Shown here: piece by piece, positions 527-8,475 of the stretch
How positions within the stretch are numbered: the first letter of the stretch is position 1
Layout: each line of letters opens with the position of its first letter
Sequence record: OQ626344
Strand: one strand, 5' to 3'
DNA: 64,000 nt
DNA from: Escherichia phage S127 BCL3
Made by a program: the position numbers and the translations under genes
Notes under the pieces: model-generated
What the model saw: only the letters and a program-made list of their open reading frames with translations
The model's database searches: none
Told to the model about the DNA's origin: nothing

Positions 527-760
527 ATGAAAGTTAAATTTCTTACAGATTTAGGGTACCCTTCCTTGGTTGACTGCGTTGGTAAAATTGTGGAAGCAAA
601 ACGGCTATCTGCAAACGATAATGTTGTCATGGTTAAGGGAAAAGATTTACTAGCTGCAGGTGCAGAGTCTGGCAGGATCTCTCCTGACTATACGTATTAC
701 CTGTCTTTAAGTAATCTACCAGAACGAGGCGGCAAAGGCCTTGAAGTTGTGGAGGAGTGA
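527..760 (+). CDS. small acidic protein, paralog family A, 77 aa
   Basis: SD GGAGG; MKVKxL N-terminus and KG-x-DL-x-AAGA core shared with ORFs at 4087, 4301, 6176, 6444. Confidence 0.75.
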   Translation: MKVKFLTDLGYPSLVDCVGKIVEAKRLSANDNVVMVKGKDLLAAGAESGRISPDYTYYLSLSNLPERGGKGLEVVEE

Positions 761-765
761 CAGGT

Positions 766-1302
766 ATGCTTCTGATTAACTGGGAAGACCTCTATGGGGA
801 CAAAGACCCTGTTGCGTTTGTTGATCGTAGGTGGAGGTACACTGAAGAACAACTGGCTGCAAAAAATTTAACTGCAAAACGCAGAAAGATCATTCAGTGC
901 AAGTACAAATACGCACAGTTTGCTGCAAAAGTGTCTCCACAAATCGAGAGTTTTGTACTTAAATTGTATGACGAGTACCTCAAATTCAAATTGGATTTTG
1001 TACAGGTATACCGTGCACAGGTACGTCCAGATACCAACATCTGCAGATGGAAGGTTGTTTGTGATGGTAAAGATTTGCCGCTCAGTTTGACAATTGAGTG
1101 GCGTTGGGGGTATCATGAGTGCGGTTTGTATGATATTTGGGATGTCATTGTAGATCCTGCTAAGTACCTGAACACAGAGGAGCTGGAATATATCAATAAG
1201 GTTATTCTAGATATGTTTTTCAGCTACACCCATGAAAACTCTGAGAAAGAACGGGATAATTTTCTTGACACCCTCGGCAACCACCTGCAGTGTACAATTT
1301 AA
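766..1302 (+). CDS. hypothetical protein, 178 aa
   Basis: Track ORF 757..1302 (GTG). ATG at 766 has SD GGAGGAG 8 nt upstream, so it is preferred. Confidence 0.7.
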   Translation: MLLINWEDLYGDKDPVAFVDRRWRYTEEQLAAKNLTAKRRKIIQCKYKYAQFAAKVSPQIESFVLKLYDEYLKFKLDFVQVYRAQVRPDTNICRWKVVCDGKDLPLSLTIEWRWGYHECGLYDIWDVIVDPAKYLNTEELEYINKVILDMFFSYTHENSEKERDNFLDTLGNHLQCTI

Positions 1303-1320
1303 CCTACAAAGGAGGAGCCA

Positions 1321-1557
1321 ATGAGTATAGATGCTGTGCTGATAGGTTACCTGGTAGTAGCTGTTCTAACAGCAGTAATCTTGGCAGGTATATGCATCGT
1401 GTCTACACGAAGGGTGAAGTTTGATGATTTTATCACCATCATCACTGCTGCGCCCTTTTGGCCTGTTGTTATCTTCATCGTAATAATGTGCCTAGTTGAT
1501 TACCACAAGAATATCCGTAAGGAGAAAAAGGAGAGTAGGGATGGATACCGCACCTAA
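1321..1557 (+). CDS. membrane protein, 78 aa (two hydrophobic helices)
   Basis: SD AGGAGGAG; hydrophobic segments VLIGYLVVAVLTAVILAGICIV and AAPFWPVVIFIVIMCLV. Confidence 0.7.
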   Translation: MSIDAVLIGYLVVAVLTAVILAGICIVSTRRVKFDDFITIITAAPFWPVVIFIVIMCLVDYHKNIRKEKKESRDGYRT

Positions 1558-1693
1558 AACTGTTTATACTGTTCTTAAAGAGATTGCATTCTACGCAGAT
1601 CTTAGCCGGGCACCTTTATGGGAAAAGAATATGTATTTAAAATGGTGCGTGAAATTAGGGGGGCCTTCTAATGTTTCAAGCCATGTTTATTGA
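1541..1693 (+). CDS. hypothetical protein, 50 aa
   Basis: Internal ATG of track ORF 1496..1693, preceded by GGAGAGTAGGG; overlaps the end of the previous gene. Confidence 0.4.
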   Translation: MDTAPKTVYTVLKEIAFYADLSRAPLWEKNMYLKWCVKLGGPSNVSSHVY

Positions 1694-1790
1694 AATGCTC
1701 TCTGGGGTATTACTGCTGGTAGCCATTTTAGGTGGCGCGGCGCTGATGTATAATTATCTTGAAAAAGGGGACAGTAATGACAAAAAATAA
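1671..1790 (+). CDS. single-TM micro-protein, 39 aa (MFQAMFIEMLSGVLLLVAILGGAALMYNYLEKGDSNDKK)
   Basis: Hand-translated, below the track cut-off; G-rich SD 7 nt upstream; hydrophobic core with charged tail. Confidence 0.4.
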   Translation: MFQAMFIEMLSGVLLLVAILGGAALMYNYLEKGDSNDKK

Positions 1791-1962
1791 ATCCTTAGAA
1801 CAGGCTGAAAACCTTCTCCACGAGCTGGTAAAGGAGTGGAAAGTTGAATACTCAGATTTTAATGCAAGAGAGGGGGAAGATTATTGGCCTACGGAGCGCT
1901 CAGAGGGAGAGTGGTATCAAGATTTCATAGAATGGCTATATCAGACGTGCGATGAGGGGTGA
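1777..1962 (+). CDS. hypothetical protein, 61 aa
   Basis: Track ORF 1759..1962; ATG at 1777 has SD AAGGGG. Confidence 0.6.
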   Translation: MTKNKSLEQAENLLHELVKEWKVEYSDFNAREGEDYWPTERSEGEWYQDFIEWLYQTCDEG

Positions 1963-2420
1963 CGATGTTTGTTAAATATGTAAAAACGTGCCTCAACAAC
2001 CTTGGTAGAGAGCATTGGTACACACTGCTTGAAAAAGGAGAAATTTTAACAAAATCTGGAAAGATAACTTTGATACCTTTGGACGATAAAGACCCGTCAC
2101 TACTTGTCATAGATGATTACGTTACAGGTGTGTCGTACGAGGTATCTGTGGAGAGGTTAATACGCAGATCTGGAGGTCCTTATGACCGAAGAGAGTATGT
2201 TTTCGATTCCGTTACAGAGAAGGAAGATCCGTCTCTAATGTTTAGGATGGTAATCAGGGATATGAAATCATCTATAAATAGGATCGTAAAGGACATTAAG
2301 GAGCCTTTTAGGGTAAAAGTTAAGAAGTTTTTTGATTCTAAGATCAACATACTTGCAGTTGTGCTAGGCGTAATTCAACTTCTGTTAATTTTGCACTATT
2401 TTGAACTGTTGTTTAAGTAA
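1959..2420 (+). CDS. hypothetical protein with C-terminal TM helix, 153 aa
   Basis: ATGA-type overlap with the upstream stop; SD GAGGGG; C-terminal ILAVVLGVIQLLLILHYF. Confidence 0.7.
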   Translation: MTMFVKYVKTCLNNLGREHWYTLLEKGEILTKSGKITLIPLDDKDPSLLVIDDYVTGVSYEVSVERLIRRSGGPYDRREYVFDSVTEKEDPSLMFRMVIRDMKSSINRIVKDIKEPFRVKVKKFFDSKINILAVVLGVIQLLLILHYFELLFK

Positions 2421-6776: not shown

Positions 6777-7171
6777 TGGTAAGTCTATACCGTGTTGAGT
6801 ATAGCTCGGATACTGTATACAACGTAAGAAGCAAAGATCGCAGTGATAGAGTGCAAGAAATGTATGTTCTTGCAGACAGTCCGTTATCTGCAGCGTTTAA
6901 GGCAGGAGCTCTTGCATCTCGTTGGAAATTCGAGGGCGGATCTTTCTATGAAGAAACCCTTGAAGATTCTGTTGTTATTTCTTCTGTAGAGGTTTCAACT
7001 GACTACGAAGGGAAAAAGTTCGTAATGCGGCACCCACACAGTAACATTGCGTACTACTGGGATGTTTTGAACAATGAGTGGACTCCTGATATTCAGAAGG
7101 CCACTGTTCTAACCCCATTCCTGGCAGATAAGTTCCCACCAGAAGGTAATTTATCTGCACTGTTTCAGTAA
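6776..7171 (+). CDS. hypothetical protein, paralog family C, 131 aa
   Basis: SD GAGGAGG; paralog of 4571..4969. Confidence 0.75.
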   Translation: MVSLYRVEYSSDTVYNVRSKDRSDRVQEMYVLADSPLSAAFKAGALASRWKFEGGSFYEETLEDSVVISSVEVSTDYEGKKFVMRHPHSNIAYYWDVLNNEWTPDIQKATVLTPFLADKFPPEGNLSALFQ

Positions 7172-7189
7172 TTTTATGCCACACAGGTG

Positions 7190-7218
7190 TTGACAACACC
7201 AACCCTGTGTGCAATAAT
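7190..7218 (+). promoter_or_regulatory. sigma70-type promoter embedded in nested palindromes
   Basis: TTGACA-17-AATAAT. CACACAGG (7182-7189) / CCTGTGTG (7205-7212) and GGTGTT/AACACC flank the -35. Confidence 0.55.
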
Positions 7219-7250
7219 ACCTTCATCTTAACAAGATAGGAGACCGATTG

Positions 7251-7508
7251 ATGAAGATTAAATTGAAAAACCTTGAAACGGCAGAGATTCAGGAAGGTGT
7301 TGATTTCCGTTCTAAAGATGGAGACATCCTAGAGGCGAATGTCCCGACATATAAGTTGATTAAAGGTTTTGGCAACGTTCCGGAGGAGGATATTACAGAC
7401 ATTCTTATGATGTTGATCCTTGACGGGACTGTGTTTGTAGGTGAAGGTGAGAACGCTATTGCAATCCCGAGCCATTTTTATGAAGTAGTTGACGAAGAGG
7501 TGCTGTAA
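7251..7508 (+). CDS. small acidic protein, paralog family B, 85 aa
   Basis: ATG at 7251 with SD AGGAGA; C-terminal HFYEVVDEE. Confidence 0.75.
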   Translation: MKIKLKNLETAEIQEGVDFRSKDGDILEANVPTYKLIKGFGNVPEEDITDILMMLILDGTVFVGEGENAIAIPSHFYEVVDEEVL

Positions 7509-7859
7509 ATGAAAGTAGAGATCACAGGTTTTGATATGAATGCGGTTCCGGAAGATATTTTAGCTAAACTCCCGGAAGGTTTTGGTAACGGTGTTGTGGT
7601 TGATGCTGTTCCCCCTACCAAAGACATCCTGCTGCAGTATGGTGTGGCAGAGGAAGATGTTGATAAAGTTCTTACAATGATGGCAATCGACCGTGTTGTC
7701 GTTGTTAAAGGTCTTGAAGGTTTTGATAACGATCCTCTGATTATTCGTGGTGATGACTATCGTGTCATCGACAACGAAGGCCAAGAGTTCTACGAACCTT
7801 CTGCTGAAGATGTTCTTAACTTACTACTGGAAGCAGGCACCGCAGAGGAGGAAGAATAA
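7509..7859 (+). CDS. small acidic protein, paralog family B, 116 aa
   Basis: SD AGAGGTG; DDYRVIDNE motif; acidic tail. Confidence 0.75.
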   Translation: MKVEITGFDMNAVPEDILAKLPEGFGNGVVVDAVPPTKDILLQYGVAEEDVDKVLTMMAIDRVVVVKGLEGFDNDPLIIRGDDYRVIDNEGQEFYEPSAEDVLNLLLEAGTAEEEE

Positions 7860-8188
7860 TGAAAATTGATCCGTTACTGAAGGCTCGTGCAGAAAAAGCA
7901 TACACTATCAAGCTGACCTCTCTGGTCCCTACTTGTCATCCGGATGTAGGTTGGCCTGAAGGCTTGGTAGAGGGGACTGTAACAGCTGCATACCTTCCTA
8001 ACATCAAATACCTCATGGAGATCTTGGAGATGGATGAGGAAACGGCAGAACAGTTCCAGTTAGACATGAAGCAAAGTGGGACTCTGGTTATTCACGGGTG
8101 GTATAATACTAAAGATGCAGAAGATCCCTTGGTAACTTCTAATCTGGCATATGAGATCTTAGGGCCTTTGAACTTGGGGGAAGACTAA
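7859..8188 (+). CDS. small acidic protein, family B-like, 109 aa
   Basis: SD GAGGAGGAAG; TAATG overlap; LAYEILGPL motif. Confidence 0.7.
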   Translation: MKIDPLLKARAEKAYTIKLTSLVPTCHPDVGWPEGLVEGTVTAAYLPNIKYLMEILEMDEETAEQFQLDMKQSGTLVIHGWYNTKDAEDPLVTSNLAYEILGPLNLGED

Positions 8189-8475
8189 TGAAAGATTTGG
8201 TTAAGATCAAGATTAAAGACACCAATGGAGAACTCAGCCATTTTGGAATTAACGATGGTGACGAACTGATCGCCCACCTGCCTACCAAGGAAGTTGTAAG
8301 CAAAGCGGTTGCCGGAGAAGAAGATGCAATGCAGGCTGCAGGTGTGGATGAAAACTATGTAGCAATGTGTATGTGCCGAGATCAGGTTGTTCTGTATAAA
8401 GCGTATCGACCAAATGGAGCACCTGAGTGGCTTGTTTTCCGACCCGAAGGGTATGAAATTTTAGAGACGCTATGA
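8188..8475 (+). CDS. small acidic protein, family B-like, 95 aa
   Basis: TAATG overlap; EGYEILETL C-terminus. Confidence 0.7.
   Translation: MKDLVKIKIKDTNGELSHFGINDGDELIAHLPTKEVVSKAVAGEEDAMQAAGVDENYVAMCMCRDQVVLYKAYRPNGAPEWLVFRPEGYEILETL

Follow-up and report, generated by a model that had tools for sequence, protein, structure and literature searches.

An 8-kb run of small genes (positions 527-8475) lies near the start of a DNA stretch of 64,000 nucleotides from Escherichia phage S127 BCL3 (sequence record OQ626344), an rV5-like E. coli myophage of the genus Vequintavirus; this whole stretch is called the window here. Twelve open reading frames (ORFs) of the run, which lies in a portion of the genome that is accessory and non-structural, belong to three families of paralogs, termed A, B and C. 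Families A and B, with five members each, are both predicted to be SH3-like five-stranded beta-barrels, and family C is a protein of about 130 amino acids (aa), unrelated to A and B, which is found twice directly after a pair of family A genes.

All twelve genes are on the + strand and are referred to by the position of their first nucleotide (nt), with the ORF number of phage rV5 in brackets. Family A is represented by gene 527 (527-760, ortholog of ORF127, 77 aa), the short form of the predicted barrel, and by the first two genes of each of two three-gene cassettes. In cassette 1 these are 4087 (4087-4311, ORF140, 74 aa) and 4301 (4301-4558, ORF141, 85 aa), which overlap by 11 nt, the second carrying a loop insertion between strands 2 and 3. 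In cassette 2 they are 6176 (6176-6439, ORF147, 87 aa), a long-insert form, and 6444 (6444-6776, ORF148, 110 aa), which has an extra 20-residue insertion after strand 1 as well as a long loop insert. The third place is taken by the family C genes, 4571 (4571-4969, ORF142, 132 aa, or 123 aa from the ATG at 4598) in cassette 1 and 6776 (6776-7171, ORF149, 131 aa) in cassette 2, where the start overlaps the stop of 6444 by 1 nt. Family B consists of an outlying copy upstream of cassette 2, 5814 (5814-6083, ORF146, 89 aa, isoelectric point (pI) 4.3), and four abutting genes: 7251 (7251-7508, ORF150, 85 aa), 7509 (7509-7859, ORF151, 116 aa), which begins right after position 7508 and ends in an acidic C-terminal tail (net charge of the protein -20), 7859 (7859-8188, ORF152, 109 aa), with an insertion after strand 1, and 8188 (8188-8475, ORF153, 95 aa), the last gene of the array. 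In both 7859 and 8188, the start shares 1 nt with the stop of the preceding gene. Nine of the 12 genes are preceded by a Shine-Dalgarno-like motif of 4 nt or more.

Membership of the three families

The initial annotation, made from the letters and translations of the window alone, had sorted these twelve ORFs into three families and had described the A-A-C order at 4087-4969 as recurring at 6176-7171; both statements hold. Ortholog alignments for 30 + strand ORFs were built from the window and six related loci and were compared all against all with hhalign (435 pairs, Bonferroni threshold ~1e-4). The 11 best of the 435 pairs, with P from 2.5e-21 to 9.5e-6, are all inside the three families, and four of the next five are further within-family pairs of B or A. 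The best unrelated pair, 4087 (o4084) and o4987, reached P 0.0013 over 11 columns, and the background otherwise starts at ~P 0.007. Significant pairs occur only within families.

The five family A members are mutually linked at P 2.5e-21 to 9.5e-6, as illustrated by 4301 and 4087 (P 2.5e-21), 527 and 4087 (P 9.6e-11) and 6176 and 4301 (P 7.6e-7), while 6444 matches the A4 profile at P 3.2e-8. A profile made exclusively from distant metagenomic homologs outside Vequintavirus picked out the five members (P 3.5e-22 to 2.1e-8) and nothing beyond them; the values are P 3.3e-21 for 527, P 3e-9 for 6176 and P 2.1e-8, over 62 columns, for 6444. This test is independent of how family A was first noticed. 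Typical of the family are an MKVK-L start, a Y at about position 11, G-K-V-x-x-A, (V/I)-x-G-x-(D/E)-L-x-x-x-G-A, Y-x-F and a terminal E-(V/I)-(V/I)-E. The motifs as first proposed need some correction: 6176 starts with MIVYFK rather than MKVK, and the G-x-DL-x-AAGA core is degenerate in 6176 (GSDMKSLGA) and 6444 (GGEIVSKLGG).

The two family C genes match each other at P 1.6e-11 over 121 columns and, together with their orthologs, have 20 invariant positions, including R-H-P, Y-W and W-(T/V). The proposed family C motif applies to 4571 with the spacing HP-x-S-x4-YW instead of x3. Gene 6776 is at least 95% identical in all 118 phage records.

The core of family B is formed by 7251 (o7248) and 7509 (P 4.9e-8) and by 7509 and 7859 (P 4.1e-6). 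Pair by pair, the match of 8188 and 5814 to the core is borderline (P 4e-4 to 1.3e-3). However, when the profile of the three core genes (B3) was scanned against 27 non-member ORFs, the two top matches were 5814 (P 1e-4) and 8188 (P 1.6e-4), and 5814 matches the four-member profile (B4) at P 2.7e-6; both alignments of 5814 extend over almost the entire protein. Family B therefore stands as a family of five, with weaker support than family A. Its motifs are an MKIK start, G-x-I-x-x-A-x-x-P-T, a helical insert, G-x-V-V and Y-E-(V/I)-(V/L) near the end. The last of these, proposed earlier as the ending of every member, does not close 7509, in which YRVI is followed by 30 more residues. No additional member of A, B or C is encoded in the remaining 55 kb of the 64-kb window.

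Part of this paralogy is already implicit in the PHROGs clustering. Genes 527, 4087 and 4301 belong to phrog_5009 (E 1e-31 to 1e-38; 2.5e-36 for 527), and both family C genes to phrog_7379 (E 2.1e-73 for 4571 and 6.4e-66 for 6776). The distant relatives of family A match phrog_5009 and phrog_13367, both without an assigned function. In contrast, 6176 (which matches phrog_5009 at E 1.2e-4), 6444 and all five B members are split into separate singleton-like families, none of them annotated with a function. The links of 6176 and 6444 to A, of 5814 and 8188 to B and of A to B, as well as the fold, are not recorded there. Paralog arrays of small genes without known function are, in general, familiar in large phages.

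The neighboring gene at 4987-5277 (rV5 ORF143) deserves mention in this connection. Its N-terminal part (…CDAKIDSKWTYKFDGE…) resembles the C-terminal part of 4087, and a 27-nt DNA match links positions 5075-5101 in ORF143 to 4238-4264 in 4087. Statistically, the similarity is weak, with a BLASTP E of 0.004 in a database of 30 proteins and an hhalign P of 0.0013, the latter over 11 columns. ORF143 may represent what is left of another A copy, joined to an unrelated sequence.

Predicted fold and wider relatives

The AlphaFold2 model of 4087, based on an alignment 19 sequences deep, has a mean predicted local distance difference test score (pLDDT) of 92. It contains strands at residues 2-5, 21-23, 33-37, 56-61 and 65-69 and a short helix at 38-43. 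The model of 7251 (mean pLDDT 88, alignment depth 25 sequences) has strands at 2-5, 26-30, 61-63, 70-72 and 77-80, with helices 34-38 and 45-58 between strands 2 and 3. Both models correspond to the SH3-like small barrel. This is a common fold, also seen in SH3 domains, the KOW domains of Spt5/NusG, PsaE and the C-terminal domain of retroviral integrase, and the resemblance does not indicate homology to any of these.

The two families have more in common than the predicted fold. The variable insertion of the long A members (4301, 6176 and 6444) is located at the same site as the helical insert of family B, between strands 2 and 3, which corresponds to the position of the n-Src loop in SH3 domains. 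Both families also have an N-terminal MK(V/I)K strand, a second strand with G-x-(V/I)-x-x-A and a C-terminal strand with (Y/V)E(V/I)(V/I)E. An extended A profile matches the B profile with 75% probability and P 2.5e-5, over the N-terminal 29 residues only. In the greedy long-alignment mode, the four best non-A matches of the A profile are all B members and, reciprocally, the three best non-B matches of the B profile are all A members. Based on the common predicted fold, the common insertion site and the shared motifs, A and B are probably one superfamily, with ten copies in 8 kb, although this is unproven.

Family A is not confined to Vequintavirus. Word-indexed protein searches returned Vequintavirus-like sequences only, and the distant relatives surfaced solely in an exhaustive hidden Markov model (HMM) search of 1.84 billion protein representatives at a cut-off of E<=1e-3. 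This search yielded 26 clusters. Distant proteins of 63-87 aa make up about 20 of these clusters, and their consensus is MKVKLLNDGGY...G.ELI..GA...F....Y.F..G.E.E.VEE; matches to ankyrin-repeat and other repetitive long proteins are likely spurious. The relatives inspected belong to variable runs of small genes in unrelated phages. One is encoded between gp32 and frd in a T4-like Moonvirus, one is in the Guernseyvirinae phage phiEap-2 and two copies are in Proteus phage RS51pmB. In the temperate phages mEp554 and mEp010, the relative is part of a nin-like run of small genes between the recombination and lysis genes; the mEp554 copy (5001-5228 of locus L014) is 41% identical to 527. The mEp554-type relative is also present in E. 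coli genome assemblies, in contigs of up to 268 kb, suggesting that family A circulates in temperate phages too and probably in prophages. The frd-32 interval of T4 contains no A homolog, despite the presence of the Moonvirus homolog at that place.

Outside the Vequintavirus lineage, the phages inspected have one or two copies of family A, against five in Vequintavirus. No Pfam family covers any A relative, and all matching PHROGs are of unknown function. Families B and C were found only in Vequintavirus and in a divergent lineage represented by locus L006. For family C, a search of IMG/VR returned only three Vequintavirus-type loci.

Two metagenomic proteins combine family sequences in other ways. 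P0066 (219 aa, from a 903-bp Logan contig) has two family A domains in one chain. In P0053 (98 aa, from a 657-bp ENA contig), an unrelated N-terminus (precomputed PF24132) is followed by the C-terminal half of the B member 7859. Both are either natural fusions or assembly chimeras.

Selection, duplication and recombination

The first 10 kb of the window are 98.6% identical to Escherichia phages B9-1 and ECP26 and 90-95% identical to ~100 other rV5-like Vequintavirus phages, and 115 of 122 phage records contain 80% or more of the region. Eighteen records labeled 'Campylobacter phage' (MG0656xx, for example MG065646.1 and MG065647.1; host given as Campylobacter jejuni) are 90-93% identical over the full length of this Vequintavirus region, and their Campylobacter host label looks doubtful.

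The ratio of nonsynonymous to synonymous substitution rates (dN/dS) was calculated for orthologs by the pairwise Nei-Gojobori method against up to six relatives. All twelve family genes have dN/dS of 0.03-0.16 with many synonymous changes (for example, 0.07 for 527 and 0.03 for both 6776 and 8188), and their reading frames are intact in the six relatives. The twelve ORFs are, thus, conserved, genuine protein-coding genes, and each paralog is under purifying selection. The non-family genes of the block have dN/dS of 0.01 to 0.37. The term 'diversifying', which the initial annotation had applied to these proteins, is contradicted by these values, since the orthologs evolve no differently from the neighboring genes.

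At the DNA level, no repeats were found between the cassettes beyond the 15-nt start motif ATGAAAGTTAAA. Amino-acid identity between paralogs is 20-47%, the closest pair being the adjacent 4087 and 4301 (47%). Because nucleotide similarity does not go beyond the start motif and paralog identity is this low, the duplications are judged to be old, predating the split from the L006 lineage. In that lineage (~34-79% protein identity), orthologs of the five A genes, the five B genes and the second C gene are kept in order, and the cassettes read A-A-X ... A-A-C. Gene X (L006 8482-8796, 104 aa) was tested as a diverged C gene and proved unrelated. An extra, inserted gene at L006 10867-11163 (PF27050, Phage_P22_Y8K6) separates the second C gene from the B array.

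Chance is an unlikely explanation for the two occurrences of A-A-C, because each C gene directly follows two A genes. Together, these data lead us to infer that the array arose by ancient tandem and block duplication. Of the segmental duplication followed by divergence that had been proposed, the antiquity of the duplications and the non-random order stand. A single clean duplication of an A-A-C block is supported only in part, as 4087 and 4301 are each other's closest relatives and as L006 has X in place of the first C gene. The cassette order is conserved in relatives within the genus and only partly in the L006 lineage.

The closeness of 4087 and 4301 fits a later exchange between neighbors, and that such exchange occurs is shown by a hybrid gene. 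In three metagenomic contigs (L003-L005), a single gene with a 70-aa product replaces 4087 and 4301 (in L003, at 7998-8213). The gene corresponds to 4087 in its 5' part and to 4301 in its 3' part, with the crossover inside the common core GA(T/C)CT(T/G)ATTGC(C/G)GCTGGTGC, which codes for DLIAAGA. The hybrid is the product of unequal recombination between tandem paralogs in nature. Copy number in the array continues to shift, both by exchange of this kind between adjacent paralogs and by loss of genes.

A natural deletion bears on the requirement for cassette 1. The BASEL phage EduardKellenberger (Bas59; L008, MZ501061.1) has lost 3.7 kb, corresponding to window positions 1163-4883. Eleven genes are gone, including 4087 and 4301, together with most of 4571. 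The deletion fuses ORF128 in frame to the last 33 codons of 4571 (ORF142), at L008 5635-6102. Bas59 was isolated as a viable phage on E. coli K-12, so it can do without the first cassette on this host. The same deletion removes ORF133 (window 1959-2420), which is among the predominant proteins in mass spectrometry of the rV5 virion (PMC3606486); given that Bas59 is viable without it, ORF133 is apparently not essential for a viable virion.

Genome setting and possible roles

Every gene in positions 1-10000 of the window is on the + strand, and the GC skew changes sign at ~10 kb. In relatives, genes for PhoH, a ClpP-like protease and a methyltransferase are upstream of the region. A homolog of the HPF/RaiA ribosome hibernation factor is encoded between the two cassettes, at 5359-5670 (PF02482, E 1.1e-12). 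In the rV5 record, P144 and P150 are annotated as sigma-70-type promoters, and a terminator is marked after ORF158. Their counterparts in the window are a strong promoter-like site ahead of the HPF homolog (5284-5312), a site ahead of the B array (7190-7218, + strand) and a hairpin at 9574-9597. The 7190-7218 site, TTGACA-17-AATAAT with the TG of an extended -10 element, has 11 of 12 consensus matches and is a pattern match only. RNA features were absent from an Rfam search of positions 1-11000 and from tRNA scans of the whole window. In rV5, these genes are at the far end of transcription unit 82-163, which also contains the nucleotide-metabolism genes gp94, gp109-112 and gp117 (PMC3606486). 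By position and promoter-like sites, it is plausible that the twelve genes are part of the early region. The rV5 genome paper does not mention the paralogs (PMC3606486), and nothing on gp140, gp141, gp142, gp150, gp151 or gp133 was found in its supplements under those names. In the literature on Vequintavirus anti-defence functions, transcriptomes and accessory-gene screens, nothing was found on these genes.

Several functional labels attached to these genes in sequence records did not withstand comparison. The GenBank record of rV5 describes ORF142 (family C) as 'similar to' NP_463491 of Listeria phage A118 (ORF30; L013 22812-23189), a protein now named AcrIIA3. The two proteins are of similar size (125 aa for AcrIIA3 and 132 aa for 4571), but the match is not significant (BLASTP E 0.039 and 0.25 in single pairwise tests; hhalign probability 0.4%), and the note should not be propagated. 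In some records, the ortholog of 5814 (in L001, PQ014731.1, at 8907-9176) is labeled 'sigma 54 modulation factor'. Gene 5814 has no Pfam match at E<=1, to PF02482 or any other family; the true HPF homolog is the separate gene at 5359-5670. Finally, no family model supports the label 'non-specific endonuclease' of the 7251 ortholog (L001 10340-10597). PADLOC returned no family at E<=1 for the ten proteins searched (the five of family A, 5814, 7251 and 7509 of family B and the two of family C; 7859 and 8188 were left out). Known structural or housekeeping proteins were not found among the matches of any of the three families.

Overall, the best explanation of these observations may be that families A and B are conditionally useful small binding modules, a proposal that we consider about as likely to be right as wrong. 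Their expression would precede that of the late genes, with transcription from host-type promoters and translational coupling within sets. Each barrel would serve as a small soluble binding module, and its variable loop or insert would give each paralog a different partner. The partners would most likely be host proteins, either takeover targets or defence proteins; alternatively, the paralogs may bind each other as hetero-oligomers. The array would then be conditionally useful to the phage rather than essential.

A number of observations weigh against this proposal. First, a fixed physiological role would account for the strong purifying selection and the near-identical copy number throughout the genus no less well than an arms race. 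Second, sequence-profile searches of Pfam, NCBIfam, PADLOC and the PDB with families A, B and C gave nothing below E ~0.01 and nothing near curated cut-offs (4571, for example, has neither a Pfam nor a PDB match). Foldseek comparison with predicted viral structures retrieved only uncharacterised proteins, mostly of 60-120 aa, from Vequintavirus, Citrobacter phage Merlin, RB49, Cronobacter CS01, Vibrio VpV262 and others. Third, the A-B sequence signal is restricted to the N-terminus and could partly stem from the common start motif and similar composition, and the fold is weak evidence for A-B homology. Fourth, family C has no relatives outside the lineage (at E<=1, tblastn finds it in Vequintavirus only). 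Fifth, the total of promoter-like sites, 25, is not above that in shuffled sequences (22 +/- 4.2), and literature searches found no expression data for these genes.

A more specific version of the proposal goes further and is, in our judgment, rather unlikely. It takes A and B as an uncurated, stand-alone SH3-like superfamily, the ten copies of which, with different inserts in the ligand loop, would form a panel of binders directed against host or defence proteins, with the A-A-C trios as coupled units. If true, such a panel would parallel, in a phage, the multigene families known from large eukaryotic DNA viruses.

It is likewise not very probable that the paralogs form hetero-oligomers, A-A-C trios and B tetramers, each with one conserved job, instead of acting as independent binders, for example in replication, translation or modulation of the HPF homolog. 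The stop/start overlaps and abutting genes suggest coupled, stoichiometric synthesis, and the A-A-C order does recur. Strong purifying selection, a copy number that is invariant in ~115 genomes and the ribosome hibernation factor homolog between the cassettes are also consistent with this idea. However, Bas59 remains viable without the first A-A-C cassette, one 4087/4301 fusion stands in for two genes in three contigs, and the L006 lineage has A-A without C.

The acidity of the proteins raises the possibility of DNA mimicry. Ocr, ArdA and CarS are, like the A and B proteins, small and strongly acidic, and are phage-encoded or regulatory. CarS is an acidic DNA-mimic antirepressor with an SH3-like fold. 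Nine of the ten A and B members are strongly acidic (pI 4.05-4.68, net charge -5 to -20), and the proteins are small and encoded outside the structural gene block, so they might block restriction-modification (RM) or other DNA-binding defence proteins in the manner of these mimics. The initial annotation had called the families acidic. This is correct for family B and four A members, but not for 527 (pI 5.4) or for 4571 of family C (pI 7.8), and several unrelated neighboring genes encode acidic proteins as well. Neither an Ocr or ArdA fold or sequence match nor resistance to type I RM was found. Vequintavirinae were reported in the BASEL study to be exceptionally susceptible to RM systems (PMC8594841), which argues against an Ocr-like anti-restriction version in particular, and DNA mimicry appears very doubtful to us.

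Finally, the idea that the families bring the phage no benefit, as selfish or neutral passengers duplicated to fill a hyperplastic region, or that they are not genes at all, draws on their lack of a known function, on the dispensability of one cassette in the laboratory and on the commonness of small-gene runs in large phages, but it is barely credible, being largely refuted by the selection data (dN/dS 0.03-0.16) and opposed by the intact frames in six relatives, the coverage of the region in 115 of 122 records, the orthologs retained in the L006 lineage at a protein identity of only ~50%, the confident fold predictions (pLDDT 92 and 88) and the conservation of family A across unrelated phage groups.

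To return to the proposal of conditionally useful binding modules, its interest lies partly in the hosts of these genes. Vequintaviruses belong to the most frequently isolated E. coli phages and are therapy candidates, and about one quarter of their genes are small ORFs without function. Beyond the initial annotation, the analysis adds a predicted fold common to A and B, which are probably one superfamily, the broader uncurated family to which A belongs, and two natural variants, the hybrid gene and the Bas59 deletion. Ten of the small ORFs in 8 kb probably have one predicted fold, with single-copy relatives in accessory regions of T4-like, lambdoid, Guernseyvirinae and Proteus phages. A set of unrelated-looking hypothetical proteins is reduced in this way to one tractable question, namely, what the mini-barrels bind. 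The natural deletion in Bas59 and the natural 4087/4301 fusion are ready test genotypes. Should the partners be host or defence proteins, the barrel would represent a new scaffold in the anti-defence repertoire; otherwise, the array would be an ordinary paralog expansion in a large phage.

The arrangement of the region has parallels in known systems. The hyperplastic regions of T4 (frd-32), the nin region of lambda and the host-takeover module of SPO1 likewise consist of co-oriented, often overlapping small genes, functionally unassigned and dispensable in the laboratory. The distant A relatives of Moonvirus and mEp554 lie in just such small-gene runs. Unlike those phages, Vequintavirus amplifies one fold, to five copies in family A and possibly to ten in A and B together.

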